A program made the position numbers and the translations under genes. This document shows positions 11,277 through 28,481 of a DNA stretch of 32,000 bases, piece after piece. The stretch is from NCBI RefSeq assembly GCF_000020385.1, contig NC_010814.1, forward strand, positions 2,700,001-2,732,000, given 5' to 3'. Origin of the DNA: Trichlorobacter lovleyi SZ. GTDB taxonomy: Bacteria; Desulfobacterota; Desulfuromonadia; Geobacterales; Pseudopelobacteraceae. Below the pieces are notes generated by a model that had not been told where the DNA came from, did no database searches, and worked only from the letters and a program-made list of their open reading frames with translations. Positions within the stretch are counted from its first letter, which is position 1. Each line of letters opens with the position of its first letter.

Positions 11277-11327
11277 GCAGTTACCCCCTGATGAAAAGCC
11301 TGTCTCAGACCTTGCAAGATGTCACCA

Positions 11328-14153
11328 TCACCGTACCTTCCCCACAGGGAACCCCTGCCCACTGATGGAGACCGTGGGAAACTGGGCACGTTTGAAAATC
11401 TTCTCTGCCAGATTCGGCACCTCATCCTCCACATAGGCGGCCAGATCGGTGGTTTTTATATAGCCGCTCCGCCCTTTGTCAGCCTTGCCCTGCAATCCCT
11501 GCACCAGAGTCCAGGTAAACAGCCCATGGCCCTGATAGCCCTCCAAGGCCTCCTGGACAGAGGTAGAGGCAGAAAGGATGGTGGAACCCACCGCACGGGA
11601 CAGCACCTTCATGGCGGTATCCTCACTCATACCGCGGGTCAGAAGGGCGGTCTGCATGGCCTGCCCCAGCTGACCGGCGTTGCAGGTATCGATCACGATC
11701 AGCTTCTTGGTGGAGGGTATGTTGGCCACCAGCTCTTTCAGCGCAGTCTGGGACAAGGCATCACTCTTCAGCTTTTGCGTACTGAGTGCACCAACATTGG
11801 AGGTAATCAGAAAATATTCACCTTCGTCAACCGTGCCGTGGCTGGCAATGTAGAGGATGAACAGGTCATCAGGATTGATGGCCTGGTAGCGTTGCAGGGC
11901 GCCGACAATCGCATCCCGGCTGGTGGCTTCCCGGGTAGTCAACGGGGTAACCCTGACCTCTTCAAACAGGCTGCTGGCCGCCGTGCGCAGGGTCTCGGCA
12001 AACAGATCGGCATCGGCCACGGCGTACTTGAGTTGCAACTTCGGATTACGGAATTCCTGTACACCGATCACCAGGGCATGCAGGGTTGGCTTGCGAATTG
12101 CAGAAAAACTGGCCTGCACCTGATGAACCGCCTCATTGCTCTGCATCGAGTTGTCGGCATTGAAGGCAATGGCCCGAATGGTGTTGCTGCCGGGGGAAAG
12201 CTTGAGGGTATAACTGCGATAGGTTGCATCGCCCCCCTCCTTCTGCACCGCCTTAAGCGAGCGGCTGCTGTCCAGCACGACGGCTGAGCCGTTCAGGAAC
12301 AGCCGCACATCACCAACACCGCCGCCCTGTTCCTCAAGCTTCAGAGTCAGTTTGAATGTCTCGTTGGCAGAACTGACAGCTGTCTGGACGATGCTGGCCC
12401 TGGGAGGCTGTTTGACATCGGCCAGGGTGCGGTACCCCTGCAACGAACCGCCGGCCAGGGCCAGCTTGACCAGGTCGGGTCGAAAGAAGGTCTCGCGGTA
12501 ATTCTCGATGCCATAGATGTTGCTGCCGACACGGACGTTTAGGTACTTATCGCCGTTGGCAGAGGCGTTGTAGTAGCCATCCGGGGTGATAATAATCCAT
12601 TCGCCATCTTCAAAGGTGTACAGATCAGCCAGCTGTTGTTTGGTTTTCCTGCTGCGCAGCTCAAGCTTGTGCCCTGTATCGTGCGTATAAAAATCACCCG
12701 TATTCCTGGTCAGAAAAATCATCCCCTGCAGCTGTCGGTAACGTTGCAGCTCCTGATAGCCGTCCTTCATGAACTCCGGGGGAACCTTGCGGTACAACTC
12801 GTGCGGGTCGAGCACCTCCCAGTCACCCCCCCCCAGGCCGCCGACCTTGGTCCCCTTCAAGCGTGACCGGGTGGTCACATTCTGTTGCTTCAGGGTGGCG
12901 GTCTCCAGATCCCACAGGTGAAACTTCAGCACGGCCTCTTTACGAGAGGCTGACCACTCCTCATGCCAGTTGAGTAGCCGGTTGCCGGAACACAACGAGC
13001 TTCTGAAACCGGCCGGCCTGACCCCAAAGCTCCTGACCAGCTCACCGGTCTGCGTCTGCCAGACCCGTACCCTGCCGTCATTAAACCCAACCCCCAGCAG
13101 TCCGTTGGCAGCAAGCGCATAGGGCCTCGCGTCATAGTTCAGTGATACATGCAGGTTCTCAAAAAGCAGTTTTCTCTCTGTGTACATGCCGTTTTTCAAC
13201 GGGGTGAGCAGCACCAGTTCCATGCGGGCTGCCTGGGGGGTATCGGTTCTATAGACATAGCCGACCAGCAGCCTGCCATCAGGTTCAAATCTGAAAAAGA
13301 GCTGTTCATCCCCGAAACCACCGATCACTTTTGTCTCTTTTATCAGCTCCCGCGGCGTATAGCTGAACACCGGCTGACCGGTTGCCAGATCGTACAGCTG
13401 TATGGCGCTTGAAGACCTCCCCCCCTGATAGGCCACCAGTTTTCCATCCGGTGAAAGCTTGAACTTAGCGCCATGAGAAATGGTTGGAATGACCAGCGAA
13501 CCTTTCCTGCGAACATTCAGGCTATCGTCATACAACACATAGCTAACAGTGCCATCCGGACCTGTGCCCTTGTGGAATACGCCGTAATAGCCGAACCCCA
13601 GATCGGTAACGCCATTGTTCTGGGTATAGATCTCATAGTCTTTATAGCGATTGATCTCTGGCAGGACCAGTTCTGAACCATCCTTCATGCTGTAGATTTT
13701 TATACCGAAAGAACCGTTAAACAGGTACTGACCGTCCTTACCGATGGCCGGATTCTGTAAAAACACGGGGCCTGCAAATCTGGGCAAGGTAATCGAACGC
13801 AGCTTTTTCCCATACAGATCATAGAGTTCGGCTGTTTTTTGATATAGAACCATGAAGGTGCTGTCATCGACAAAATAGATATTCGAGGCACGACCATATT
13901 CCGTTTGCAGCTTGATGGTCCTGATCTCCCGGCCGCTGGCCACCTCCCAGGTCTTCAGGTACCCCTCTGCCTCCTTGCTGACCAGATGACTGGCGCCCGG
14001 ATTGATGGCAACGAATTCGACGAGACCGGCATGCCCGGTTTGGGCAAAAACCTCCTGTTTGTCGGACGCCCATAAAGCCCCCGGCAACGTCCCCAGCATA
14101 AAGCAAAACACCACCGCAGTCAGCATCCAGATGGTTTGAAAGCTGCGCGCCAT
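11328..14153 (-). CDS. Secreted beta-propeller / Ig-like / peptidase C14 (caspase/orthocaspase-type) multidomain protein
   Basis: Start reassigned to ATG at 14153, preceded by GGAGGAG. This gives 941 aa beginning with the signal peptide MARSFQTIWMLTAVVFCFMLGTLPGALWA. The N-terminal two-thirds has repeated beta-strand-rich WD40/TolB-like segments (RVWQTQTGELVRSF, LSPDGKLVAY). An Ig-like segment follows (FKLTLKLEEQGGGVGDVRLFLNG). The C-terminal ~255 aa (about 11331-12095) is a caspase p20-like domain with HALVIGV, ASHG (His codon 11838-11840) and VIDTCNAG (Cys codon 11682-11684). Confidence 0.85.
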   Translation of the reverse strand: MARSFQTIWMLTAVVFCFMLGTLPGALWASDKQEVFAQTGHAGLVEFVAINPGASHLVSKEAEGYLKTWEVASGREIRTIKLQTEYGRASNIYFVDDSTFMVLYQKTAELYDLYGKKLRSITLPRFAGPVFLQNPAIGKDGQYLFNGSFGIKIYSMKDGSELVLPEINRYKDYEIYTQNNGVTDLGFGYYGVFHKGTGPDGTVSYVLYDDSLNVRRKGSLVIPTISHGAKFKLSPDGKLVAYQGGRSSSAIQLYDLATGQPVFSYTPRELIKETKVIGGFGDEQLFFRFEPDGRLLVGYVYRTDTPQAARMELVLLTPLKNGMYTERKLLFENLHVSLNYDARPYALAANGLLGVGFNDGRVRVWQTQTGELVRSFGVRPAGFRSSLCSGNRLLNWHEEWSASRKEAVLKFHLWDLETATLKQQNVTTRSRLKGTKVGGLGGGDWEVLDPHELYRKVPPEFMKDGYQELQRYRQLQGMIFLTRNTGDFYTHDTGHKLELRSRKTKQQLADLYTFEDGEWIIITPDGYYNASANGDKYLNVRVGSNIYGIENYRETFFRPDLVKLALAGGSLQGYRTLADVKQPPRASIVQTAVSSANETFKLTLKLEEQGGGVGDVRLFLNGSAVVLDSSRSLKAVQKEGGDATYRSYTLKLSPGSNTIRAIAFNADNSMQSNEAVHQVQASFSAIRKPTLHALVIGVQEFRNPKLQLKYAVADADLFAETLRTAASSLFEEVRVTPLTTREATSRDAIVGALQRYQAINPDDLFILYIASHGTVDEGEYFLITSNVGALSTQKLKSDALSQTALKELVANIPSTKKLIVIDTCNAGQLGQAMQTALLTRGMSEDTAMKVLSRAVGSTILSASTSVQEALEGYQGHGLFTWTLVQGLQGKADKGRSGYIKTTDLAAYVEDEVPNLAEKIFKRAQFPTVSISGQGFPVGKVR

Positions 14154-14179
14154 AGACTCCTCCAGTCGACACATCAAGT

Positions 14180-14482
14180 TCAACGTACCAGCCGCCATAA
14201 AATGCTGCCAACCACAATCACAAACGTTACCAACAGGGCCGCCACCACAAACCGGTGCGGAACAAATCCGGGATGCTGGCCACCACCTGCGGGAGTACCC
14301 CCGGCAGGAGATTTTCGGCGTCGCATACCCTGCAACAGTGCAGTTGTCAGGCCGCCGAACAAAAGGCTGAAGGCGAGAAAAAAAGCTGCACTGCCAGGCT
14401 GTTCTGCAGTGAACACAAGACCGGAAGTCACCAGGCTGAAGATGGTACAGCATGCGAAGACAACCAGCATGGCAATGCGCAT
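14180..14482 (-). CDS. Small predicted integral membrane protein (three hydrophobic helices), first gene of the caspase/CHAT operon
   Basis: 100 aa from ATG 14482, with AAGGGG 6 nt upstream. Three about 20-aa hydrophobic stretches are separated by a basic Gly/Pro-rich loop (MRRRKSPAGGTPAGGG). Ends 26 nt before the caspase gene start. No family recognised, so coding status rests on ORF, RBS and hydrophobicity only. Confidence 0.5.
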   Translation of the reverse strand: MRIAMLVVFACCTIFSLVTSGLVFTAEQPGSAAFFLAFSLLFGGLTTALLQGMRRRKSPAGGTPAGGGQHPGFVPHRFVVAALLVTFVIVVGSILWRLVR

Positions 14483-14623
14483 GACCATCCCCTTTCTTTA
14501 CACCGCATGAACTGCTCACCATGATAGCACAATCCTGGTGGTTTTCAGGGTTGGCTTGCAGATCTATCTGTTGCTGGTATAGTCGATGCTGCAATCTCAC
14601 ACAACAACACACGAGGATTCAAT

Positions 14624-16372: not shown

Positions 16373-19066
16373 CTACTTCAGATTTCTGATCTTCTCCAGG
16401 CTTTCTTCCAGTACCGCCTTCTTTGCAGTAACGTCTGCCAGCTTGGCCTTTTCCTTGGCAACAATGTCAGCCGGAGCCCGGTCAACAAAGCTGGGATTCT
16501 CCAGTTTTTTCGAGAACTGCTCGATCTCTTTATCCAGCTTGGCGATCTCCTTCAGGAGCCGCTTCTCCTCTTCAGCCACATCCACCAGCCCCTTCAGCGG
16601 GACAAAGACCTGAAACCTGCCGGCCGGCTGCACAGAGGCATCTTCCGGCTTTTCCAGGTTACGCCCGATGGTCAGATCGGCCACCCGGGCCATGCTCCTG
16701 ATCTTTGATTCAAACAGTCGCGCCAGATCCTCGGCCTGCTGGGAACCTGTTGAAAGGATAACCGTAATTTCACGGGATGGAGGGACTTCCATCTCACCAC
16801 GAATGGTACGGATCGCCGAGATGACCTCCATCACCTGCTCCATCCGGCCGGCTGCGTCTTCAAACTGCCAGTCTTCACGGGGTTGCGGATAAGGGGCCAA
16901 CATGATGGATGGAGGCCAGTCGCCGCCTGATCCACGCAGATTGCAGCGGTCGCCCTTGGGCAGGGTCTGCCAGATCTCCTCAGTAATAAACGGCATGATC
17001 GGATGCAGCAGACGCAGCAGGTGTTCCAGCACGCTCCAGAGCACATACTGGGTAGTGCGGCGGCGCAGCGGATCATCACCGTACAGCTCCTGCTTGGACA
17101 GCTCCAGGTACCAGTCGCAGAACTCGCTCCAGGTAAACTGGTACAGCGTCATGGCTGCCTCGTTAAAACGGTACTCGTCAAGAGCCTGGTTGGTTGCACG
17201 GGCGGTTTCATTCAGACGGTGCAGGATCCATTCATCGGACTCGGTCAACCGCAGGTCTTCAAAAACCAGTTGATCCGGCTCAAAACCTTCCAGATTCATC
17301 ATGGTAAAGCGGGCCGCATTCCAGACCTTGTTGCAGAAATTGCGGTAACCGGAGATCCGCTCTTCAGCCAGCTTGATATCCCGACCCTGGGCGGCAAAAG
17401 CAGCCAGCGTAAAACGGAAGGCATCGGTACCGTACTGGTCGATCACCGTCAGCGGATCAATCACATTCCCCTTTGACTTGGACATCTTCTGGCCGTGGGC
17501 ATCCCGTACTAGGGCATGGATATAGACATCCTTGAACGGCACCTCATCCATGAAGTGCAGTCCCATCATCATCATGCGGGCTACCCAGAAGAAGAGGATG
17601 TCAAAGCCGGTCACCAGGGTTGCGGTGGGATAAAACCTTTTCAGCTCAGCGGTCTGATCAGGCCAGCCCATGGTGGAGAACGGCCAGAGTGCCGAAGAGA
17701 ACCAGGTGTCCAGCACGTCGGTTTCCTGGCGGAGTTCGTCACTGCCACACTGGCTGCAACTGGTCGGGTCTTCCATGGAAACGGTTATCTTGCCACAATG
17801 ATCGCAGAACCAGGCCGGGATACGGTGTCCCCACCAGATCTGACGCGAGATACACCAGTCCCGAATGTTCTCCATCCAGTCGTAATAGGTGTTTTCCCAC
17901 TGTTTGGGCAGGATGCGGGTACGACCATCCTTGACCGCCTGCAGCGCACGCTCGGCCAGCGGGCCAACCTTGACGTACCACTGCAGGGAGAGGTACGGCT
18001 CCACCACGGTCTTGCAACGGTAGCAGCCCCCCACCGACAGACCGTGATCGTCGATCTTCTCCAGCAGCCCTGCAACCTCAAGGTCCTCCACAATCCTGGT
18101 GCGGGCCTTGAAACGATCCAATCCTTCGTACTGATGTCCGGCAGCATTGATAATGCCCGACTCATCAAAGACATTGATCTTGTCCAGACCGTGGCGTGCC
18201 CCCACCTCAAAGTCGTTGAAATCATGGGCCGGGGTGATCTTGACCACACCGGTGCCGAACTCGCGGTCCACATACTCATCCGCAACCACCGGAATCTCAC
18301 GGTTCACCAGCGGCAGCAGCACCTTGGCGCCATGCAGATCGGCGTAGCGTTCATCTTCCGGATGCACCGCCACGGCGGTATCCCCCAGCATGGTCTCGGG
18401 CCGGGTGGTGGCCACGGTCAGGAAGCGGCCCGGCTGCCCCACCACCGGATAGCGGATATGCCAGAGGTGCCCCTTTTTCTCTTCATGCTCCACCTCGATA
18501 TCGGAAAGGGCGGTATGGCAGCGGGGACACCAGTTGATCAGGCGGTTATCGCGGTAGATCAACCCGTCCTCGTACAGTTTGACAAAGACCGTGCGCACCG
18601 CCTTGGACAGACCGGCATCCATGGTAAAGCGTTCCCGTTCCCAGTCACAGGAGGCACCCAGCCGCTTCAGTTGTCCAATGATCTGGCCACCCGACTCGGC
18701 CTTCCATTGCCAGACCCGCTCGATAAACGCCTCGCGCCCCAGATCATGACGATCCTTGCCTTCTGCAGCCAGTTGCCGCTCCACCACGTTCTGGGTGGCG
18801 ATACCGGCATGGTCGGTACCGGGCATCCAGAGCACGCTGTGACCGGTCATCCGCTTCCAGCGACAGAGGATATCCTGCAGGGTATTGTTGAGGGCATGCC
18901 CCATATGCAGGGCACCGGTGACGTTGGGCGGTGGGATGACAATACTGTAAGGTCTGCGGGGAGAGGCTTCATCAGCATGAAAATAGCCCTTTTCAGCCCA
19001 CTCGCCGTACCATTTTTTCTCTACCTCATGGGGTTCGTACCCCTTGGCCAGTTCCTTGTTGGACAT
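16373..19066 (-). CDS. valS: Valine--tRNA ligase
   Basis: Class I signatures PPPNVTGALHMGHA (HIGH) and KMSKSKGN (KMSKS). C-terminal coiled-coil arm. I prefer ATG at 19066 (GGGAA 6 nt upstream) over the GTG at 19069 used by the ORF track. Confidence 0.95.
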   Translation of the reverse strand: MSNKELAKGYEPHEVEKKWYGEWAEKGYFHADEASPRRPYSIVIPPPNVTGALHMGHALNNTLQDILCRWKRMTGHSVLWMPGTDHAGIATQNVVERQLAAEGKDRHDLGREAFIERVWQWKAESGGQIIGQLKRLGASCDWERERFTMDAGLSKAVRTVFVKLYEDGLIYRDNRLINWCPRCHTALSDIEVEHEEKKGHLWHIRYPVVGQPGRFLTVATTRPETMLGDTAVAVHPEDERYADLHGAKVLLPLVNREIPVVADEYVDREFGTGVVKITPAHDFNDFEVGARHGLDKINVFDESGIINAAGHQYEGLDRFKARTRIVEDLEVAGLLEKIDDHGLSVGGCYRCKTVVEPYLSLQWYVKVGPLAERALQAVKDGRTRILPKQWENTYYDWMENIRDWCISRQIWWGHRIPAWFCDHCGKITVSMEDPTSCSQCGSDELRQETDVLDTWFSSALWPFSTMGWPDQTAELKRFYPTATLVTGFDILFFWVARMMMMGLHFMDEVPFKDVYIHALVRDAHGQKMSKSKGNVIDPLTVIDQYGTDAFRFTLAAFAAQGRDIKLAEERISGYRNFCNKVWNAARFTMMNLEGFEPDQLVFEDLRLTESDEWILHRLNETARATNQALDEYRFNEAAMTLYQFTWSEFCDWYLELSKQELYGDDPLRRRTTQYVLWSVLEHLLRLLHPIMPFITEEIWQTLPKGDRCNLRGSGGDWPPSIMLAPYPQPREDWQFEDAAGRMEQVMEVISAIRTIRGEMEVPPSREITVILSTGSQQAEDLARLFESKIRSMARVADLTIGRNLEKPEDASVQPAGRFQVFVPLKGLVDVAEEEKRLLKEIAKLDKEIEQFSKKLENPSFVDRAPADIVAKEKAKLADVTAKKAVLEESLEKIRNLK

Positions 19067-19186
19067 CACGACTTCCCTGCCTTTACATGTTTTTACAGCG
19101 GATTGTGTTTATATACCGATGCAGCTGCCCCGGTCAAGGTTCTGCTCAAGCACGGTTCGCCAAGCAATTTTCATTAAAATTACCAT

Positions 19187-19278: not shown

Positions 19279-19608
19279 ATGCAGCATCACTCCATGCGCA
19301 ACCTGTTGGCCGGTCTCAGTATCACCACACTCATTGCCGGTATGGCATCAGTCTCAGCTGCCGAGACGGCGCCGGCAGCTCCTGCAGAAAACGGAAAGCC
19401 GGCCACAGAGTCGGGCCCCAGCGGCTGCGGCGGCATGAAAAAGTGCCCCAAGTGTGCTAAACATACAAGCGATGGTGCCAGTGGCTGCGGTGGGGCCATG
19501 AAGCAGCCGCAAGCAGAGCAACCTGCCCCGCCCAAAGGGGCCAGCGGCTGCGGTGGAGCATCCGGCTGCGGTGGCGGAACAAAGCCTGCCACGCCTCCCA
19601 AGCAATAA
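19279..19608 (+). CDS. sbtA: Cys-type precursor peptide of the SbtA (thio(seleno)oxazole RiPP / GeoRSP) family
   Basis: 109 aa. AAAGGA RBS 7 nt upstream. Hydrophobic signal-like leader MRNLLAGLSITTLIAGMASVSAAE. Low-complexity Pro/Ala/Gly/Lys-rich core with four S-G-C-G-G motifs (Cys50, 70, 91, 97) plus CPKC. Paralogous to the Sec-containing gene at 19848-20189 and upstream of an rSAM/SPASM enzyme. Confidence 0.8.
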   Translation: MQHHSMRNLLAGLSITTLIAGMASVSAAETAPAAPAENGKPATESGPSGCGGMKKCPKCAKHTSDGASGCGGAMKQPQAEQPAPPKGASGCGGASGCGGGTKPATPPKQ

Positions 19609-19676
19609 ATCGAACATGACGATTTGACAACCGAACTACTATTGCTAAAATCACTTGCAGGCGGTGTAGCCACCGC

Positions 19677-19828
19677 CCTAACAGGGCTGTAAAAAACGTA
19701 ATGAGGAAGGCCGGATACCAGACGCACGGAACACAGTGACTGAGACATAACAACCAGTTAGTCGAAGGAGCGAGTACCGCGCAACGCCGTAGACAGCCTC
19801 CGGAATAGTTTTTCAAAGCCCTGTTAAA
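19677..19828 (+). repeat. Copy A of a ~150-nt noncoding repeat with a long closing inverted repeat (REP/MITE-like or structured RNA)
   Basis: Gap-free 125-nt core (19692-19816) aligns by hand to 26316-26440 with 19 mismatches. TAACAGGGCT (19679-19688) is complementary to AGCCCTGTTA (19817-19826), and the helix extends to about 19 bp with 2 mismatches. Confidence 0.65.
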
Positions 19829-19847
19829 TCCACGCAGGAGGTTTGCT

Positions 19848-20189
19848 ATGGAGAAGGACCGGTTGAAGTCCATCCTGGCAGGAATGGGCATCGCCAGCCT
19901 CGTTGCAGGCATGGCGGTTGTTCCGTTCAACGCTCAGGGCGCGAGTGGTTGAGGCGGCAAGGAGGGTGCCGGGAGCACCCCGAAGAAGGAAGCCGGCACA
20001 AGTGGCTGAGGCGGTAAGAGCGGCGCCGGGAGCGCCGAGACCCCCAAAGACAAAGATGGCAAGCAGACCCCGGATGACAAGAAACCTGCAGAGAGCAAGC
20101 CTGCAGAAAAACCGGCTCCAAAGCCGGGCGGCAGCGGCTGAGGTTCAAGTGGTTGAGGCGGCTCAACCGGCGCCGGGAGCGCCAAGTAA
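19848..20189 (+). CDS. sbtA: Selenocysteine-type SbtA-family precursor peptide with four in-frame UGA (Sec) codons
   Basis: ATG 19848 with AGGAGG (19836-19841) 6 nt upstream. In-frame TGA at 19950, 20007, 20139 and 20154; TAA stop at 20187-20189. Translation with U for TGA: MEKDRLKSILAGMGIASLVAGMAVVPFNAQGASGUGGKEGAGSTPKKEAGTSGUGGKSGAGSAETPKDKDGKQTPDDKKPAESKPAEKPAPKPGGSGUGSSGUGGSTGAGSAK (113 aa). Each U occupies the Cys position of the SGCGG motif of the upstream paralogue. The leaders are homologous, and hairpins follow each UGA. Confidence 0.8.
19964..19980 (+). promoter_or_regulatory. SECIS-like hairpin 1
   Basis: GGGTGC-CGGGA-GCACCC (6-bp stem, 5-nt loop). It begins 11 nt after UGA-1 (19950-19952). 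Confidence 0.55.
20021..20037 (+). promoter_or_regulatory. SECIS-like hairpin 2
   Basis: CGGCGC-CGGGA-GCGCCG. It begins 11 nt after UGA-2 (20007-20009). Same loop as hairpin 1; the stem sequence differs but base pairing is preserved. Confidence 0.55.
20151..20168 (+). promoter_or_regulatory. SECIS-like hairpin 3 (candidate)
   Basis: GGTTGA-GGCGGC-TCAACC (6-bp stem, 6-nt loop). It begins 9 nt after UGA-3 (20139-20141), and its 5' arm contains UGA-4. Different loop from the other three, so less certain. Confidence 0.4.
20169..20183 (+). promoter_or_regulatory. SECIS-like hairpin 4
   Basis: GGCGC-CGGGA-GCGCC. It begins 12 nt after UGA-4 (20154-20156), with the same loop and register as hairpins 1 and 2. 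Confidence 0.55.
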
Positions 20190-20345
20190 AAGATCACGAT
20201 AGTTGTATGACCGGGCGGCAGGGTACACTCATCTCTGTCGCCCGTTGCTTAGACCAACCACCTATTTTTCAGGAGGCCCGCCATTTTCCCCACGACCCGA
20301 AAACTGCTGGGACAGGATGCCTGGAATCGTCTGATCGGCAAATCC

Positions 20346-21842
20346 TTGCATGAGCTTGATCCGGAAACCGTGCCCGCCCAGCTGGAAAAGGTGGCCGGCC
20401 TGACCCACCCGGAATGGTTGCCGGATCTGGCCCGGCTGGAGCTGGGCTGTCACCGGGCCATGAATATTCCGCTGCCCCAGCCAGAAGAGCTGCAGACCCT
20501 GACCATCAACCCCTCATTGCAACTGCTACCGGTTCCCTGGACACATCTGCTGACCCTGCTGACCTTTGGCAAAAAGCAGGATATGGAACGGGTTGAGCCG
20601 GGTGAAGAACTGGTGCTGATCTGGTCTGATCCGACAAACAGGAATCTGCGATTTGAAACGGCCCTGCCGGACCACCTGCTGGCATTGAAGATGGTGACCG
20701 AAGGGATAACCCCGGAGGAGGCGGCACAACAGGCAAACCAGCCGATTGCACTGTTCGATGCCGTGCTGTGGGATGCTGTGCGCAAAGGGGTCCTGCTGGC
20801 ACCGCTGTCGCGTCTGCGCCGTACCCCGGCGATTGCATCACAGGCGGTTGATAATCGTTTCGTTGCAGCCGAGGTGTTCACCCTGCAATGGCATCTGACC
20901 CAGAGTTGCGACCTGTCCTGCAAGCATTGTTACGACCGCAGCCAACGGGCAGCCTTCCCGTTTGACCGCGCCGTCACATTGATGCAGGAGCTGCGCGATT
21001 TCTGCTGGAGCCGCTTTGTACGACCCCAGGTTTCATTCAGCGGCGGCAATCCACTCCTGCATCCGGATTTCTACCGGATCTATCAGGCGGCAGCTGACCA
21101 CGGCCTGATGACCGCCATCCTCGGGAACGCCACCGAACGCAGCAACATTGAACGGCTAATGGCGATCCAGCGTCCGGTCTACTATCAGGTCAGTCTTGAA
21201 GGGCTGGAAGAACATAACGACAGCATCCGGGGAGAAGGCAACTTCAAACGGACGATTGCATTTCTTGAAATGTTGACTGAGCTGGGGGTGCCCAACATGG
21301 TGATGCTGACCCTGACCAGGAACAATCTTGATCAGGTGATCCCGTTGGCTGCAGTTCTGGAGGGTATTACCGGCGGATTGACCTTCAACCGCCTGGCCCT
21401 GTTCGGTGAGGGGGCGCGGCTGGCGCTGCCCACCCGTGAGGAATACAAGGCATTTCTTGAGCAGTATGTGGCAGCCATGCCGACCCACCCGGTGCTGGCA
21501 CTGAAAGACAGTCTGCTCAACGTAATCTACGATGACCGGGGCGAACCGTTGTTCGGCGGCTGCGCCGGATTCGGCTGCGGTGCCGCTTTCAACTTCATTG
21601 CCATCCTCTCCGATGGTGAGGTGCATGCCTGCCGAAAATTTCCTTCTCCCATCGGCAACATCCTGAAGCAGAGCCTTGAGGAGGTCTACAACGCTGAAAC
21701 GGCAGCACGTTATCGGGATGGTTCAACCGCCTGTCACGGCTGCAAACTGAAACCGGTCTGCGGTGGCTGCCTGGCGGTAACCGCCAGTTTTGGCCATGAT
21801 CCCCTGACCAGCAAAGACCCTTACTGCTTCAGGACAAAGTGA
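20346..21842 (+). CDS. sbtM: Radical SAM/SPASM peptide maturase of the SbtM (thio(seleno)oxazole modification) family
   Basis: CxxxCxxC cluster motif CDLSCKHC (nt 20907-20930). C-terminal SPASM-type Cys-rich region (GCAGFGCGAA..., CRKF, CHGCKLKPVCGGC). About 165-aa N-terminal extension precedes the rSAM core. Immediately follows two SG[C/U]GG precursor genes. The ORF-track start is a TTG at 20346; the true start may be upstream (see findings). Confidence 0.88.
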   Translation: MHELDPETVPAQLEKVAGLTHPEWLPDLARLELGCHRAMNIPLPQPEELQTLTINPSLQLLPVPWTHLLTLLTFGKKQDMERVEPGEELVLIWSDPTNRNLRFETALPDHLLALKMVTEGITPEEAAQQANQPIALFDAVLWDAVRKGVLLAPLSRLRRTPAIASQAVDNRFVAAEVFTLQWHLTQSCDLSCKHCYDRSQRAAFPFDRAVTLMQELRDFCWSRFVRPQVSFSGGNPLLHPDFYRIYQAAADHGLMTAILGNATERSNIERLMAIQRPVYYQVSLEGLEEHNDSIRGEGNFKRTIAFLEMLTELGVPNMVMLTLTRNNLDQVIPLAAVLEGITGGLTFNRLALFGEGARLALPTREEYKAFLEQYVAAMPTHPVLALKDSLLNVIYDDRGEPLFGGCAGFGCGAAFNFIAILSDGEVHACRKFPSPIGNILKQSLEEVYNAETAARYRDGSTACHGCKLKPVCGGCLAVTASFGHDPLTSKDPYCFRTK

Positions 21843-23032
21843 TCCACCACCCAGGCTGCAAAGGGGAAGCTGCAGGTAAAGGCCGGCGACACGGCATTCA
21901 GCACATGGATGCTGTGCCGGTCTCCTTCCACCACAAAATCCTGCACCAGCTCTTTGGTAGCGGTATTCAGTAGCTGGGCGCGGATACCCGGCTTGCTCCA
22001 CTGGTTGAAACCGGCGGTATTGATCTGCTTCACCATTTTCGTGGCCAGACCGGTAAAATAGCTACGGTCGTACTTCTTTAACTCAGACAGCGCCAGAGAA
22101 CGAAAGCCGAAGTTATCCCCCAGAAACAGGCGCGACTCCCAGCCGAGTATCTCCAGTAGTTCCCCGAGCCGGAAATGCTCCAGACCGGCATAGTTCTGGC
22201 GCCAGAAGGCCGGTATGGCAGTGGGGCCGATCTTGATCGTCCCATCCACCGTCACCGTATAATGAACCCCCAGAAACGGATTCTTCAGATTGGGCACCGG
22301 ATAGATGTTGGTGCGGATCGGTTTGTCCGTACCGGTGTATTTCAGGTAGATCCCCTTGAACGGGATAATGGTGTAGTGCTGTGAAAAACCGTAGTCACGG
22401 GCAACGGTATCGGCATACAGACCGGCGGCATTGATGGTCAGACCGGCCTCCAGCACCAGACCACCGGTTGTCAGAATGGCCGCATCCCCCTGACGTTTCA
22501 GATATCCCTGGCCAAACAGAAAACGGACACCGGCCGCCTCAAGATCGTCTTTCAGGGCATGACAGACCTGGCCCGGATCAACCGTGGCCGTAGTGGGGGA
22601 ATAGAGGGCGATCCCGGTGGTCTTTGCGTTGGGATCGATCTCGGCCAGCTCCTGTTCGTCGATGATCCGCACATCCACGCCGTTCCGCTCACCGCGACGC
22701 TGCAGTTCCTGCACCCCTTCAATCTCATTCAGATCCGAGGCGACAACGACCTTGTGGCACCGGTTGATTGCCAGGCCGCGGCCTGTAACGTAGTCGGTCA
22801 TCATCCGGTTGCCTTCACGGGTAAAACGGGCCTTCAATGAATCAGCCGAATAGTAGAACCCGGCATGCAGTACCCCGCTGTTGCGGCCACTGCCGTGAAA
22901 GGCCACGTCTGCTTCCTTGTCGATCACCAGGATGTCGGCCGCAGGAAAACGGTTCTTCAGCTCACGGGCCAGGGCCAGGCCGATAATCCCGGCCCCGATG
23001 ATCAGGTAATCGCAACGTTGCTGGTTGCTCAC
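21821..23032 (-). CDS. lhgO: FAD-dependent L-2-hydroxyglutarate oxidase/dehydrogenase family
   Basis: 403 aa from GTG. Dinucleotide-binding [15 protein letters not shown]. Colinear similarity (from memory) to E. coli LhgO/YgaF: [46 protein letters not shown]. Confidence 0.85.
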
Positions 23033-23616
23033 AGTTGCACCGGATACTGTCTGGAAAGTTTGAGAAAGTTATCCAGCAGCTCCATGCCGCCTTCGGTCAG
23101 GATCGATTCAGGGTGGAACTGCACCCCCCAGACCGGCAGGTCGCGGTGACGCAAGCCCATGATCTCGCCGTTATCCACCCAGGCGGTCATTTCCAGACAG
23201 TCCGGCAGGGTTGCACGTTCAACCACCAGCGAATGGTAACGGGTGGCATTGAACGGGTTGGGCAAACCGCTGAACAGCTCCTTGCCGTCATGGTGGATCG
23301 GTGAGGTCTTGCCGTGCATCAGGGAGACACTGCGCACCACTTTGCCGCCAAAGGCAGCGCCGATGGACTGATGCCCCAGACAGACCCCCAACAGCGGTAT
23401 CTTTCCGGCGTACTCCTTGATAGCCGCCACCGAGATACCCGCCTCTTCCGGAGAACAGGGGCCGGGCGAAACCACGATCCGGTCAGGCCGTAGCCCGGCA
23501 ATATCGGCAACGCTGATTTCATCATTGCGCACCACCTTCACCTCCTCACCCAGCTGTGCCAGGTACTGGACAATATTGAAGGTAAACGAGTCATAATTAT
23601 CGATCATTAAAAGCAT
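23029..23616 (-). CDS. trpG: Anthranilate/aminodeoxychorismate synthase glutamine amidotransferase component II
   Basis: Start set to ATG 23616 (GGAG 6 nt upstream) rather than GTG 23628. [19 protein letters not shown], catalytic GVCLGHQ and FHPES motifs of class-I GATase TrpG/PabA. Confidence 0.85.
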
Positions 23617-23650
23617 GGCAGACTCCACTATCTAGTAAACTGATAATACA

Positions 23651-25939
23651 CTAACTCCGGACCCGAAATCCTGATTTTTTCAGGGCGCTCAGATCAAGGC
23701 CGCCTGTTGTACTCTTTGGTTCCTGTTTTGGCTGGGCAGCAGGAGATGCGGCTTTACGCACCGCTGCACCGCCGGGCTCAGACTCTTTGATGGATAAGGC
23801 GATCCGCTTGCGCTGCGGATCAGCAGACAGCACCTTGACCTTGACCACCTGCCCCACCTGTACCGCATCATTGGGGTCCTTGATAAAACGGTTGGCCAGG
23901 TGGCTGACATGCACCAGACCGTCCTGATGCACCCCGATATCCACAAAGGCGCCAAAGGCGGTTACATTGGTCACCACCCCCTGCAGGATCATCCCTTCCT
24001 GCAGGTCACTGATCTCACGGATATCATCCCTGAAATCAGCGGTCTGGAACTGCTGGCGCGGGTCACGGCCCGGCTTTTTCAGTTCCTCCAGAATATCCCG
24101 CAGGGTCGGCAATCCAACCTGATCACTGACGTACTTCTTCAGGTCGATCTTTTCTGCCAAGGCAGGAGTTTTGGCCAGCTCTTCGAGGGAGACTCCCAGA
24201 TCTTTGGCCATCTGTTCCACCAACGGGTAGCGTTCCGGGTGGACTGCAGAGTTATCCAGGGGATGTTTCCCGCCACGGATACGCAGGAATCCGGCAGCCT
24301 GTTCAAAGGCCTTGGCACCAAAACGGGAGACCTTCAGCAGACCTTTGCGGGAACTGAACGGACCGTTTTCATCACGATGCCGGGCGATGGCCTTACCCAG
24401 GGCAGGCCCTACCCCGGCCACATAGGACAACAACGCCCAGGAGGCGGTGTTGAGATCCACCCCCACGTAGTTAACCCCGGATTCCACCACCTCATCCAGA
24501 CTCTTCTTCAACATGGCCTGATTGACATCGTGCTGATACTGCCCCACGCCGATGCTCTTGGGGTCGACCTTGACCAGCTCTGCCAGCGGGTCCTGCAGAC
24601 GGCGGGCAATGGAGATCGCACCCCGCACAGTCAGGTCCAGCTCAGGAAACTCCTCCCGGGCAATCTCCGAGGCAGAATAGATACTGGCCCCGGCCTCACT
24701 GACCATCACCACCGGCAGATGTTTACCCGCCTTGGCCAGGGTCTCTTTGGTGAACAGTTCCATCTCCCGCCCGGCAGTGCCGTTACCGATGGCGATCATC
24801 TCAATTCCGTGGGCCTCCACCAGCCGCAGCAGGTCTGCTCTGGCCTGATCCACCCGACCGGCGCCGGTGTGGGGATAGATGGTGACATGCTCCAGAAACC
24901 TGCCGGTCTGATCCACCGCTGCCAGCTTGGAACCGGCCCGCAGACCTGGATCGATCCCCAGCACCCGCCTGCCCCCGGCAGGTGGGGCCAGCAGCAGGTT
25001 CTTCAGGTTTTTTGCGAAAATGGCAATGGCCGCCTCATCAGCCAGATCCTTGGCCTGTAACCGCAGTTCAACTTCAATGGAAGTGGCGATCAAACGTTTG
25101 TAGGCATCCTCAGCCACCGATTCCAGCCAGGGTTTGAAGACACTCTCGCCCTTGATCAGACGATGCTTGAGGCCAGCCAGAATCTCGGCCTGGGGCACCT
25201 GCAGGGAAAGCCGCAGCACCTCTTCCTTTTCACCCCGTCGCATAGCCAGCATCCGGTGGGAAGGGATCTCCTTCAGCGGTTCCTGATAATCATAGTACAT
25301 CTCAAACTTGGTGACCTGCTCCTTCTTGTCCGATGCAACCTTGGTGACCATGACCCCCTGTTCCCAGGTCAGGCGGCGCACCATGGCCCGGCAATCGGCA
25401 TCATCAGCCAACCGCTCGGCCAGGATATGCCCGGCCCCTTCCAGGGCAGTCTCAGGTGTGGGGACCTCCTTTTCATGATCAACAAACGGGGCTGCTGCCT
25501 CCAGGGCGCTGCCGCTGGTCAACTCCTGGGCTGCCATCAGATCGGCCAGCGGTTCAAGTCCCCGTTCCTTGGCAATGGTGGCCTTGGTACGACGCTTGGG
25601 TTTGTACGGCAGATAGAGATCTTCCAGTTCGGTCTTCTGGCGGGTCGCCTCGATACGGGCCTGCAGTTCAGGGGTCAGCTTACCCTGTTCATCAATCGAG
25701 GCCAGAATGGTCTGACGCCGGGCCTCCAGTTCCGTGAAATAGGCCAGCCGTTCCTCAATCGTACGGATCTGCACCTCATCCAGCTCGCCGGTCTGCTCCT
25801 TGCGGTAACGGGCTATAAAGGGGACCGTGGCCCCTTCCTGCAGCAGGTTGACGGTGTTGCTGATCTGACCCTGCCTGAGCCCGGTCTCTTCGGTAATGAT
25901 TTTTTCTATCGCTGCAAGCTGTTGCTGATTCAATGCCAT
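23651..25939 (-). CDS. tex: Tex-like transcription accessory protein (YqgF/RNaseH-like, HhH and C-terminal S1 domains)
   Basis: 762 aa. N-terminal TVPFIARYRKE motif, central RuvX/YqgF-like GIDPG...IAIGNGTA, and C-terminal S1 domain GMILQGVVTNVTAFGAFVDIG. Confidence 0.92.
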   Translation of the reverse strand: MALNQQQLAAIEKIITEETGLRQGQISNTVNLLQEGATVPFIARYRKEQTGELDEVQIRTIEERLAYFTELEARRQTILASIDEQGKLTPELQARIEATRQKTELEDLYLPYKPKRRTKATIAKERGLEPLADLMAAQELTSGSALEAAAPFVDHEKEVPTPETALEGAGHILAERLADDADCRAMVRRLTWEQGVMVTKVASDKKEQVTKFEMYYDYQEPLKEIPSHRMLAMRRGEKEEVLRLSLQVPQAEILAGLKHRLIKGESVFKPWLESVAEDAYKRLIATSIEVELRLQAKDLADEAAIAIFAKNLKNLLLAPPAGGRRVLGIDPGLRAGSKLAAVDQTGRFLEHVTIYPHTGAGRVDQARADLLRLVEAHGIEMIAIGNGTAGREMELFTKETLAKAGKHLPVVMVSEAGASIYSASEIAREEFPELDLTVRGAISIARRLQDPLAELVKVDPKSIGVGQYQHDVNQAMLKKSLDEVVESGVNYVGVDLNTASWALLSYVAGVGPALGKAIARHRDENGPFSSRKGLLKVSRFGAKAFEQAAGFLRIRGGKHPLDNSAVHPERYPLVEQMAKDLGVSLEELAKTPALAEKIDLKKYVSDQVGLPTLRDILEELKKPGRDPRQQFQTADFRDDIREISDLQEGMILQGVVTNVTAFGAFVDIGVHQDGLVHVSHLANRFIKDPNDAVQVGQVVKVKVLSADPQRKRIALSIKESEPGGAAVRKAASPAAQPKQEPKSTTGGLDLSALKKSGFRVRS

Positions 25940-26047
25940 ACTGGATAATTCCTTAACACTGGGTAGAAGGGATCAACTGAAAAGGTAATAAGCCTATCTA
26001 TTCAGGTGACAACGGCGTACTGTGAACAGATCAGACAAGGAGAAACC

Positions 26048-26305
26048 ATGATTATCAAAACAGGAGCCGTCGTCATTCATCCCGGAGCAGCTGCATGGGG
26101 CGTTGGTAAAATAACCGAGGTGGCAGCCCTGAAGGCAACCATTCAGTTCAGTGACGGCATCATCAGGAAGATCGCCTCTTCCCATTATGCCAGCCTGCGC
26201 CCCGGTGATCCGGCCGACTTTGTAGCCTTGGTGGAAAGCGCACCGGTTGAAAAGGTCCGCGCCCCCCCCAAACGGACAAAGAAAGTTAAAGAGCTGGCGG
26301 CCTAG
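26048..26305 (+). CDS. Small DUF3553-like protein
   Basis: 85 aa from ATG 26048 (AAGGAG 5 nt upstream; the ORF-track start at 26006 lacks an RBS). The motif VIHPGAAAWGVGKITEV...IQFSDG resembles the HP..WG.G core of DUF3553 proteins (recollection). Basic C-terminal tail. Confidence 0.5.
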   Translation: MIIKTGAVVIHPGAAAWGVGKITEVAALKATIQFSDGIIRKIASSHYASLRPGDPADFVALVESAPVEKVRAPPKRTKKVKELAA

Positions 26306-26452
26306 CAGGCTGCTGAAAAACGTCATGAGGAAGCACGGCTACAAGGCGCACGGCGCACAGCGACTGAGACATAACAGATAGTTAGGCGAAGGAGCGAGCA
26401 CCGCGCAACGTAGTAGACGGGCTCCGTAATAGTTTTTCAACAACCTGCTAGA
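26301..26452 (+). repeat. Copy B of the ~150-nt noncoding repeat
   Basis: Core 26316-26440 matches 19692-19816. The closing helix CTAGCAGGCTGCTGAAAAAC (26302-26321) pairs with 26432-26451 at 18 of 20 positions. Its left end overlaps the TAG stop (26303-26305) of the upstream gene. Confidence 0.65.
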
Positions 26453-26600
26453 CAGAAGCCGCCAGACACGATCAATATTCCGGTTCCAGTTCGAGGACGC
26501 TGTCAAGGCCGCGAGGGATTCGGTGACACAGGCGTACACGCAATACGTTGAGGAACCGAAGACGAACCAACGAAGAGAGAGCCTTGAAATGGAAGCAGAA

Positions 26601-26879
26601 TTACCAGCGTTTGGTGACCTCGATCAGATGATAGCCGAACTGTGTCCTGACCGGTCCCAGCACCTTGCCGATCTCACCGGAAAAGACCACCTCGTCAAAC
26701 TCCTTGACCATCTGACCGGGACCGAATGCCCCCAGGTCACCACCCCGCATCCGGGAGGGACAGGATGAGTTGAGCTTGGCCACCTCGCCGAAGTCGGCGC
26801 CGCCCTCTATCTCTGTCTTCAGTTTCAGACATTCCGCTTCGGTTGAAACCAGGATGTGTCGTGCCGTTGCTGTTGCCAT
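26601..26879 (-). CDS. ppiC: Parvulin-type peptidyl-prolyl cis-trans isomerase
   Basis: 92 aa. ARHILV, GGDLGAFGPGQMVKEFD and TQFGYHLIEV motifs of PpiC/Par10. AAGGAG RBS 7 nt upstream. Confidence 0.85.
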   Translation of the reverse strand: MATATARHILVSTEAECLKLKTEIEGGADFGEVAKLNSSCPSRMRGGDLGAFGPGQMVKEFDEVVFSGEIGKVLGPVRTQFGYHLIEVTKRW

Positions 26880-26913
26880 GGTGTCGCTCCTTATCGTTAA
26901 ACTTTGGTAGTTT

Positions 26914-28389
26914 TTACTTCAGCCCACGCTCTGCAATTTCGATGGCCCGGCGGACTGCCATCGCCTTGTTAACTGTTTCCTGCCATTCAGCAGCCGGGTC
27001 GGAATCGGCAACAACACCGCCTCCGGCCTGGAGGTGCACCATACCGTCCTTAATCACCAGCGTGCGGATGGCAATCGCCAGATCCATGTTGCCGGAGAAG
27101 GAAAAGTAGCCTACCGCGCCACCGTAAATCTCACGCCGCACCGGCTCCAGCTCGTCGATGATCTCCATGGCCCGCACCTTGGGAGCGCCGGACAGAGTAC
27201 CGGCCGGGAAGGTGGCCCGCACCAGATCAAAGGCATCCCTGCCTTCCGCCAGCTCGCCATAGACGTTGGAGACGATATGCATGACATGGGAGTAACGCTC
27301 GATCACCATCAGCTCTGAGACGGTCACCGTGCCGGTGGCACAGACCCGCCCCAGGTCGTTGCGTCCCAGGTCCACCAGCATGACATGCTCGGCCCGTTCC
27401 TTGGGGTCGGCCAACAGCTCCTCTGCCAGTGTGGCATCTTCTTCCGGTGTTGCACCACGCGGCCTGGTTCCGGCAATCGGCCGCAACTCCGCCCGTGTTC
27501 CCTCCTTGCGCACCATGACCTCGGGTGAAGCACCGGCTATCACGGTGCCGTCCAGACGCAGAAAGAACATGTAAGGCGAGGGGTTCAAGGTGCGCAATAC
27601 CCGGTAGATATCAAAGGGGTCCGCTGAAAGCGTGCCGCTGAAACGCTGTGACGGGACAACCTGGATAATGTCGCCGGCACGCACGTATTCCTTGGCCTTC
27701 TCAACCGCCGCCTCATACTCTTCACGGCTTATATTGGAACGGAGTTCAGCAGGTTTGACCGCTTCCGGTGCTCCGGCAGGCGGCAACGGCCCGCGCAGCT
27801 TGTGAATTATCCCCTCAATCCGGGCCAGCGCCTCTGCATAGGCATCCTCGGCAGAGACCGTGCCGCCAAGATGGGCGTTGGAGACCACCTTGATCTTCTG
27901 ACTGACGTTATCGAAGATGATCAGGGTATCGGTAACCAGGAAATAGGCATCGTAGGCATCAATCAACGCCGGTTTCTGCGTTGGCAGGTGCTCGAAATGA
28001 CGCACCATGTCGTAGCCAAGGTACCCCACTGCGCCACCAAAGAACCGGGGCAACCCCGGCACCTCAACCGGCGTGAAACGGCTTAGCAGAGCACGGATAC
28101 TATCCAGAGGATCAGCGACTGTTTGACTGGTAATGACACCATGCTCAATGGTTTCAACTGTTTTACCCTTGGTACGGACGACAAGTGAGGGGCTGGAGCC
28201 GAGAAAGGTATAGCGTGCCCACTTCTCTCCACCTTCGATACTCTCCAGCAGAAACGAGTAACAGTCGTCATCAATCTTGCGAAAGGCAGTTACCGGTGTG
28301 TCCATATCAGCCATAATCTCACGATAGACCGGCACCAGGTTGCCCTTTTGCGCCAGCTGACAAAAGTCTTTAAAATCAGGAAATACCAT
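26914..28389 (-). CDS. trpE: Anthranilate synthase component I
   Basis: Start set to ATG 28389 (GGAGA 5 nt upstream), 491 aa. FLLESIEGGEKWARYTFLG N-terminal regulatory motif. C-terminal chorismate-binding core (GTLSGAPKVRAMEII, GGAVGY, LQAGGGVVADS). Confidence 0.9.
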   Translation of the reverse strand: MVFPDFKDFCQLAQKGNLVPVYREIMADMDTPVTAFRKIDDDCYSFLLESIEGGEKWARYTFLGSSPSLVVRTKGKTVETIEHGVITSQTVADPLDSIRALLSRFTPVEVPGLPRFFGGAVGYLGYDMVRHFEHLPTQKPALIDAYDAYFLVTDTLIIFDNVSQKIKVVSNAHLGGTVSAEDAYAEALARIEGIIHKLRGPLPPAGAPEAVKPAELRSNISREEYEAAVEKAKEYVRAGDIIQVVPSQRFSGTLSADPFDIYRVLRTLNPSPYMFFLRLDGTVIAGASPEVMVRKEGTRAELRPIAGTRPRGATPEEDATLAEELLADPKERAEHVMLVDLGRNDLGRVCATGTVTVSELMVIERYSHVMHIVSNVYGELAEGRDAFDLVRATFPAGTLSGAPKVRAMEIIDELEPVRREIYGGAVGYFSFSGNMDLAIAIRTLVIKDGMVHLQAGGGVVADSDPAAEWQETVNKAMAVRRAIEIAERGLK

Positions 28390-28481
28390 GCTATCTCCAA
28401 GCGTTGAAATGATTTTTGAAGCTATCACAGGGGGTATTTCGTGTCAATCGTGCACCATCCTCTTTTCATTATAAAGAGTTG

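Follow-up and report, generated by a model that had tools for sequence, protein, structure and literature searches.

In the genome of Trichlorobacter lovleyi SZ, a stretch of 32,000 nucleotides (nt) of contig NC_010814.1 (hereafter the window, to which all coordinates refer) carries at positions 19848-20189 what is very probably the gene (sbtA) for a precursor peptide of the SbtA family, in which four in-frame UGA codons are read as selenocysteine (Sec), each by way of its own short selenocysteine insertion sequence (SECIS) hairpin. A SECIS behind the UGA of sbtA has already been reported and the principle is known; the case described here is a regular instance of an established mechanism within an established family, and it extends that mechanism without changing it. 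New are the presence of four UGA-SECIS cassettes in one peptide, the uniformity of the arrangement across the family, the imprint of the hairpins on the peptide, and the placement of the hairpin in the 3'-untranslated region (3'-UTR) in relatives. Also new is a pair of UGAs five codons apart, the first hairpin of which encloses the second UGA.

Four UGA codons and their hairpins in sbtA

The sequence statements that follow were checked directly on the letters of the window, in the 19500-20700 region. The sbtA reading frame lies on the + strand and extends from an ATG at 19848 to a TAA at 20187-20189, provided that the in-frame TGA codons at 19950-19952 (UGA-1), 20007-20009 (UGA-2), 20139-20141 (UGA-3) and 20154-20156 (UGA-4) are read through. 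The read-through product of 113 residues begins with MEKDRLKSILAGMGIASLVAGMAVVP and continues, with U for Sec, through the motifs SGUGG, SGUGG and SGUGSSGUGGSTGAGSAK, with Sec at residues 35, 54, 98 and 103. Its leader scores 39.2 bits against the NCBIfam model TIGR04081 (SbtA thio(seleno)oxazole RiPP precursor, where RiPP stands for ribosomally synthesized and post-translationally modified peptide; cutoff 30.5, E = 4e-10), and the Gly-(Cys/Sec)-Gly required of an SbtA core occurs four times, as SG-U-G, within the 113 residues. The gene for the radical S-adenosylmethionine (SAM)/SPASM maturase, sbtM (20346-21842, + strand; TIGR04082, 681 bits, cutoff 350), starts 157 nt downstream of sbtA on the same strand; SbtM converts Gly-Cys or Gly-Sec to a thio(seleno)oxazole (PMC9204691).

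As originally predicted, a hairpin with the loop CGGGA stands 11-12 nt past each of UGA-1, UGA-2 and UGA-4, in agreement with both the coordinates and the letters of the window. SECIS-1 (GGGUGC-CGGGA-GCACCC, 19964-19980, + strand; -9.6 kcal/mol) begins 11 nt past UGA-1 and encodes (E)GAGST; it is the centroid structure locally, and the same 6 bp recur in the family consensus described below. SECIS-2 (CGGCGC-CGGGA-GCGCCG, 20021-20037, + strand; -10.2 kcal/mol) begins 11 nt past UGA-2 and encodes (S)GAGSA, and SECIS-4, or hairpin B (GGCGC-CGGGA-GCGCC, 20169-20183, + strand; -7.8 kcal/mol), begins 12 nt past UGA-4 and encodes (T)GAGSA. UGA-3, the first of the pair five codons apart, is followed by hairpin A (GGUUGAG-GCGG-CUCAACC, 20151-20168, + strand), the stem of which begins 9 nt and the loop 16 nt past the UGA. 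Hairpin A has 7 bp and a 4-nt loop, folds at -10.5 kcal/mol counting an extra U-G pair, encloses UGA-4 in its 5' arm and directly adjoins hairpin B. Intrinsic terminators were considered and rejected, as no T-run follows any of the hairpins on the + strand.

The stems of the window hairpins differ by the compensatory U-A to C-G change that had been predicted and by a second change, G-C to C-G, in the outermost pair. The peptide after UGA-1, UGA-2 and UGA-4 reads UGGKEGAGS, UGGKSGAGS and UGGSTGAGS, so that the predicted U-G-G-x-x-G-A-G-S does occur three times, with a GAGS 'shadow' motif where the hairpin is encoded. These three canonical units, each a UGA with its hairpin, are repeats of a single 41-nt module, with 76-83% identity. 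A simple UGA-plus-hairpin pattern gives 10 raw matches in the window, at 7 distinct UGA sites, where about 2 matches would be expected from shuffles, and its three sbtA sites all fall within 205 nt. An sbtA paralogue with cysteine (Cys) at all four motif positions (SGCGGMKK, SGCGGAMK and SGCGGASGCGGGTK) is encoded at 19279-19608 on the + strand (TIGR04081 E = 1e-4, below the cutoff), and the SG-U-GG of sbtA aligns with SG-C-GG in this paralogue and in Cys-only SbtA peptides. Neither GAGS, which had been predicted to be missing after its motifs, nor a SECIS-type hairpin was found in the paralogue, which serves as an internal negative control.

Public gene calls terminate the sbtA peptide at residue 34, at the first UGA, including those for three loci with the same sequence as the window (L070-L072); because the calls end at the UGA, a protein homology search with SbtA returned 3 matches only. 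The Joint Genome Institute (JGI) call of one relative (protein P0001) renders UGA as Trp (GASGWGG...SSGWGG), and the middle site of this peptide is Cys, with a decayed shadow motif, SGVVD.

The bacterial SECIS model (bSECISearch, summarised in PMC13188914) has an upper stem of 4-16 bp that carries an apical loop of 3-9 nt, a G in the first two loop positions (mostly N1-G-(G/U)-N-N2), a UGA-to-loop distance of 16-37 nt and a minimum free energy (MFE) of -7.5 kcal/mol or lower. Bacterial SECIS hairpins have also been described as having 6-8 bp and a conserved G about 20 nt past the UGA (PMC4605307). In hairpins 1, 2, A and B, respectively, the stems have 6, 6, 7 and 5 bp and the loops 5, 5, 4 and 5 nt; the loops, CGGGA three times and GCGG in hairpin A, all contain the early G and begin 17, 17, 16 (hairpin A, counted from UGA-3) and 17 nt past the UGA; and all four energies lie below the threshold, the last at its border. 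Together with the alignment of the UGAs to Cys codons in homologues and the conservation of the structure documented below, this places all four window hairpins inside the model in every respect, SbtA elements lying at the short end of its stem and spacing ranges. The earlier description of these elements as unusually small was dropped on this ground, and because the SECIS of Escherichia coli fdhF has the same 11-nt spacer and 17-nt stem-loop. The predicted role of hairpins 1, 2 and 4 as SECIS elements is supported.

The mechanism that we propose has the same pattern for every UGA: after 9-12 nt there follows a GC-rich stem of 5-7 bp with the loop N-G-(G/U)-N-N, to which the SelB.GTP.Sec-tRNASec complex would bind through the C-terminal winged-helix domains of SelB, the Sec-tRNA being delivered when the ribosome brings the UGA into the A site. 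The three canonical units are duplicated cassettes of 41 nt.

Conservation at Sec sites and selection at the RNA level

To compare Sec with Cys sites, 148 SbtM loci from many phyla were assembled, consisting of 68 genome loci (among them Trichlorobacter, Geobacter, several Desulfobacterota orders, Nitrospirota, Chloroflexota, Omnitrophota and Chlorobium) and 80 independent metagenome loci. SbtA-type peptides were located in these loci by a leader hidden Markov model (HMM), sites were de-duplicated, and a hairpin was counted when it reached -5 kcal/mol or better and started 6-22 nt downstream of the codon. Overall, about 90% of 195 distinct Sec-UGA sites had a hairpin, and of 141 Cys codons within these peptides about 12%. 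In the genome loci, the 112 Sec-UGA sites had a hairpin in 91% of cases, the 86 Cys codons in 13% and shuffled sequences in 11% (Mann-Whitney p = 7e-25); in the metagenome loci, the 83 new Sec sites had one in 88% of cases and the 55 Cys sites in 11% (p = 4e-15). Both p-values are overstated because the sites are not phylogenetically independent. The contrast between Sec and Cys sites is very large and was reproduced in the second set.

All 82 distinct hairpins have G at the second loop position, followed by G (52) or U (30) at the third, and the loop begins 17 nt past the UGA at 44 sites and 20 nt past it at 31. The RNAalifold consensus of 18 UGA-anchored sequences is a single 6-bp hairpin starting 11 nt past the UGA, with compensatory changes in 3 of the 6 pairs, and pair counts on an alignment of the 82 hairpins lie above both controls. 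Orthologues, in which the original prediction had proposed to look for loss of the hairpin or of covariation, have kept both. In many phyla the in-frame SbtA sequence carries on past each UGA. A search of the fetched flanks for other SECIS-bearing selenoprotein genes that could be compared returned only spurious read-throughs.

At C-terminal Cys sites in L015 (Cys 88 of 93 residues) and L063 (Cys 92 of 97 residues), where the peptides end ..QSSCTGTKK and ..KSSCSGSKE, a SECIS-like hairpin over the stop codon has been retained (UAGGGCAGGUUGCCCUG and UAGUGCCGUGCGCACUG); these hairpins are probably fossils of a recent Sec-to-Cys replacement. In L019, L044, L089/L098, L097/L100 and L125 an apparent true-stop UGA lies 1-5 codons past the Sec-UGA with the hairpin beyond it, as in ..SGUGGSK-UGA and ..SGUG-UGA, so that spacing to the hairpin would tell Sec from stop. 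Many of the leaders in L021-L024, L031, L032, L054, L062, L084-L098 and the Chlorobium loci L052, L055 and L059 have a lipobox-like L-x-G-C before the core; their resemblance to a signal peptide or lipoprotein signal suggests that the product may be exported or membrane-anchored.

At 22 C-terminal Sec sites, in peptides that end ...SGUG, ...SGUN, ...SGUS or ...SGUSGTKK, the hairpin spans the stop codon or stands past it, and may do so in any frame. Where the hairpin is coding, 78 test sites were picked by the peptide motif x-[AT]-[GV]-[SG]-x alone, and in 78 of 78 the wobble position of codon 1 forms a pair with the initial base of codon 5 (U:A 44, C:G 30, U:G 2, A:U 2); GAGS-Thr therefore accompanies GGU, and GAGS-Ala accompanies GGC, which extends the originally noted compensatory change to the family. 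Ser codons within the stem are AGC (47) or AGU (2) and never UCN; just 5' of the UGAs they are AGU (54), AGC (41) and UCN (27). The GAGS-type shadow motif follows 80 of 92 Sec sites as opposed to 4 of 80 Cys sites, none of the four being paired with a SECIS-type hairpin, so that GAGS after Cys, another observation that the original prediction had proposed to look for, is essentially absent. As the second loop base is invariant, hairpins lie over or past stop codons and the synonymous wobble position covaries in every case, the constraint is on the RNA, which upholds the earlier proposal of a SECIS-like constraint with GAGS as its by-product. The hairpin stands in a fixed phase within the frame (GGY GCN GGN AGC RCC), and the peptide therefore reads Gly-Ala-Gly-Ser-Thr/Ala. 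These patterns support the interpretation of the Gly-Ala-Gly-Ser motif as the imprint of the RNA hairpins on the peptide.

The opposite view, that GAGS is a peptide-level motif, serving as a spacer or as a recognition element for SbtM or a protease, and that the hairpin arises accidentally from GC-rich Gly, Ala and Ser codons, is very improbable. With the amino acids held fixed, 52% of the coding hairpins reach p <= 0.05 under synonymous shuffling; about half are individually non-significant, and the peptide motif alone therefore encodes much of the stem, while the nature of the cassettes as duplicated modules would also suit such an explanation. It is opposed, however, by the retention of the hairpin at the 22 C-terminal Sec sites, where no peptide is encoded over or past the stop, by the covariation of synonymous wobble bases with their stem partners, by the restriction of stem Ser codons to AGC or AGU, and by the lack of both motif and hairpin after Cys, whether within these peptides or in Cys-only homologues. 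We give equally little credence to the proposal that the hairpins are generic mRNA elements, acting in pausing, stability or attenuation without binding SelB, with the UGAs being stops or read otherwise. In being short and GC-rich the hairpins resemble many local structures, and they have no SECIS family match in Rfam, but they are strictly tied to in-frame UGAs and not to Cys codons, they stand at a fixed distance, and their loops, with an invariant G and then G or U, fit the SECIS consensus; moreover, the SbtA frame is maintained beyond each UGA across phyla, and SbtA is an accepted selenoprotein family.

Several results weigh against reading sbtA as a precursor with four Sec residues and a SECIS for each. 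In this GC-rich stretch, dinucleotide shuffles fold as well as the window hairpin segments do (z = -0.1 to -1.9), and the case for more than chance therefore rests on the comparison with other loci. No relevant match was found in Rfam 15 at E <= 10, the sole match being a spurious long non-coding RNA on the other strand, but bacterial SECIS elements vary too much, and are too short, for curated family models of this kind, so that recognition by one does not define the class. A scan of the 32-kb window (11 of its long open reading frames, or ORFs) found no selA, selB, selC or selD, and no tRNA. The alignment of 82 hairpins was pre-selected for at least 4 bp, which makes its inner-pair counts partly circular; the wobble test escapes this circularity because its sites were picked by peptide motif alone. 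A covariance model, R1, built from the 82 SbtA hairpins, missed the fdhF SECIS with its bulge and its loop of 6 nt, and is therefore unusable as a general SECIS detector. Finally, that SelB binds, that Sec is in fact inserted and that hairpin A is used before hairpin B are steps that we infer.

A global fold of 19940-20195, suggested with the original prediction, is misleading as support (z = -0.47), since it wrongly pairs hairpin 2 with hairpin 4, the two being near-identical palindromes that pair with each other. The suggested covariance model did rank the three window hairpins first: in a search over 37 kb the top three matches of R1 were SECIS-2 (24.4 bits), SECIS-1 (23.2 bits) and SECIS-4 (21.6 bits), with the next match at 15.2 bits, a ranking that provides no independent test because the window hairpins resemble the training set. 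On fdhF, as stated, the model failed.

The close pair UGA-3 and UGA-4

For UGA-3 the original prediction had described a hairpin 9 nt downstream that has UGA-4 in its 5' arm. Both of these features stand, and the proposed stem of 6 bp with a 6-nt loop gives way to the better one of 7 bp with a 4-nt loop. The tandem had also been presented as a puzzle for SelB-dependent decoding; the question is a real one, but there is no contradiction, as hairpin A itself satisfies the SECIS model for UGA-3. It is plausible that hairpin A is the SECIS for UGA-3. Apart from its loop, GCGG or GUGG, hairpin A is invariant in 6 of 6 sequences of the Trichlorobacter clade; it involves a rare Ser codon, UCA, and four wobble positions, and reaches p of about 0.02-0.04 under synonymous-codon shuffling. 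In the MFE structure, which has an ensemble frequency of 0.74, hairpins A and B stand next to each other. The Cys paralogue has the same tandem layout, SGCGGASGCGG, and no consistent hairpin was found there (p = 0.14-1.0). An enclosing hairpin that fits the SECIS model is also present in L018 (p = 0.007).

In the reading that we favour, hairpin A (20151-20168) would recruit SelB for UGA-3; the advancing ribosome would then melt it and expose UGA-4, which would be served by the adjoining hairpin B, already in place 12 nt downstream. As a general rule for close pairs this arrangement meets counterexamples. The enclosing hairpins of L011, L014 and the L043 group lie too near the first UGA (p = 0.09-0.28), and a single shared downstream hairpin, with no separate one for the first UGA, was found at the U-S-S-U pairs (SG-U-S-S-U-GK, UGAs 3 codons apart) of L033, L122 and two genes in L130, and at L080, where the UGAs are 6 codons apart. 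Owing to these deviations, a SECIS shared by both UGAs has to be considered.

One form of sharing, which we consider unlikely, would leave UGA-3 without a SECIS of its own: hairpin B would serve both UGAs and hairpin A would be a collapsible spacer, which when folded would shorten the path from UGA-3 to hairpin B to about 11-12 nt and when melted would leave hairpin B 12 nt from UGA-4. The direct adjacency of hairpins A and B suits this geometry, and a hairpin encloses the second UGA in several independent lineages (the window clade, L018, L043/L066/L067, L014 and L011/L078); if the enclosing hairpin is skipped, the first UGA comes to lie, by hand count, about 14-17 nt from the canonical loop in most lineages (standard 17-20 nt), and the shuffling p-values of six lineages, combined by hand with Fisher's method, give about 0.004. 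The proposal would follow from geometry alone, L011 does not fit its distance arithmetic, L080 and the U-S-S-U pairs of L033, L122 and L130 have no spacer hairpin, and hairpin A by itself conforms to the SECIS model throughout, including a G that opens the loop 16 nt past UGA-3. Sharing could also be direct, with UGA-3 relying on hairpin B over a long distance (32 nt to the loop), and with hairpin A incidental or in another role. A distance of 32 nt is inside the 16-37 nt range of the bacterial model, the U-S-S-U and U-x5-U lineages with one hairpin have, by our own count, its loop about 29-35 nt past the first UGA, and some Cys-paralogue tandems form a chance hairpin from GGC/GCC codons. Against this, changes of several codons are reported to be poorly tolerated in E. 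coli spacing experiments. The use of UCA and of four wobble positions in hairpin A, with its low shuffling p-values, and its invariance in all six clade members, as opposed to the inconsistent Cys tandem, speak against an incidental hairpin, and we regard decoding at long range as quite unlikely.

Whether hairpin A were a first SECIS destroyed by the ribosome or a collapsible spacer, it would form part of a two-state RNA device that decodes UGAs five codons apart, an idea that we offer tentatively and hold to be less likely than not. If it is true, the SbtA family would show how SelB-dependent recoding can operate repeatedly and at short intervals on one short mRNA, with as many as four events in 113 codons, whereas the common assumption is that Sec decoding in bacteria is not efficient enough for this. 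Close UGA pairs offer a tractable system for measuring how strict the UGA-to-SECIS spacing is in SelB decoding, and for asking whether two SelB complexes act back to back.

Genomic setting and comparison with known systems

Upstream of the Sec-type sbtA, at 19624-19651, there is a strong sigma-70-like promoter match (TTGACA, 16 nt, TAAAAT; 11/12 with extended TG), the TTGACA box of which is kept in Geobacter and Trichlorobacter relatives. The 5' leader that follows contains a 148-nt insertion (19679-19826) with 19-nt terminal inverted repeats (TAACAGGGCTGTAAAAAAC ... GTTTTTCAAAGCCCTGTTA) and possibly a TA duplication at its flanks. The insertion is missing in all close relatives (L001, L002, L004-L008 and L011), the leaders of which otherwise align, and no second copy was found in the window or the fetched loci; lying between promoter and ribosome-binding site, it looks like a miniature inverted-repeat transposable element (MITE-type). 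Farther away, and unrelated to sbtA, two very large ORFs occupy 8199-14612 on the - strand: one encodes a 1025-aa TPR-repeat protein, and the other, of 1094 aa, has a C-terminal caspase-like domain that matches the EACC1-associated type (75 bits, below the cutoff of 140). The neighbours at 16373-19069 and 21821-28428, both on the - strand, are housekeeping genes and include a long ORF matching valyl-tRNA synthetase Pfam domains, L-2-hydroxyglutarate oxidase, trpG/pabA, an S1-domain protein and trpE.

The regularity of the cassettes has a practical use in annotation: a rule consisting of a UGA, 11-14 nt and a stem with the loop N-G-K-N-N could recover full-length SbtA peptides. The gap to be closed is evident at this locus, where gene callers stop at residue 34, a review credits the family with two Sec and four are encoded. 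The family is also an unusually clean natural dataset on how an in-frame RNA signal shapes a protein, as it combines Sec and Cys sites in the same peptides, coding and 3'-UTR placements, and fossil hairpins after Sec-to-Cys replacement.

Among characterized elements, that of E. coli fdhF (UGA, 11 nt, GGUUGC-AGGUCU-GCACC; confirmed in 5,419 genomes, locus L069) is like those of SbtA in its 11-nt spacer, its 17 nt from UGA to loop, its 17-nt stem-loop, its stem core GGU(U)GC/GCACC and a loop in which G precedes G or U, and many SbtA hairpins, among them GGUGC-AGGUG-GCACC and UGGUGC-AGGUU-GCACCA, nearly copy it. The fdhF element differs in having a bulged U, the 6-nt loop AGGUCU and one UGA, whereas SbtA hairpins are bulge-free with a 5-nt or 3-nt loop. 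The fdhF SECIS also has a lower stem.

Distant SECIS elements in the 3'-UTR of eukaryotic selenoprotein P mRNA act on many UGAs via SBP2 and eEFSec. In SbtA, by contrast, the hairpins are local, one standing at a fixed 9-12 nt past each UGA, which is what decoding of the SelB type calls for; the likeness lies in the presence of several Sec codons in one short reading frame (for selenoprotein P, PMC5727441). Bacterial families with Sec beside the C-terminus are listed in PMC13188914 under the names 'UXX-star' and 'KCU-star'. Any family with Sec so close to the stop must put its SECIS over or after the stop codon, and the SbtA relatives that end ...SGUG, ...SGUN or ...SGUSGTKK do have it there. 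The window differs in that its last SECIS is still coding (the peptide ends STGAGSAK), 3'-UTR placement being confined to other lineages.

The closest comparison is with the SbtA/SbtM system itself. As cited in PMC9204691, Haft and Basu (2011) described sbtM as the neighbour of a peptide gene in which an in-frame stop codon has a SECIS directly behind it; later annotation suggests 'at least two' Sec residues (PMC9204691), and a 2026 review gives TIGR04081 ('selenobacteriocin') the motif SGUG and 2 Sec, stating that bacterial selenoprotein families carry one Sec and rarely 2-3 (PMC13188914). In a literature search that covered Haft and Basu (2011) and Lewis et al. (2021) through citing papers, no description of the per-UGA cassette structure or of the peptide imprint was found. 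The sbtA of T. lovleyi shares with the described system the same leader, the SG-U/C-G motif and the adjacent SbtM, and differs from it in encoding four Sec, including a pair five codons apart, where two or 'at least two' had been described.

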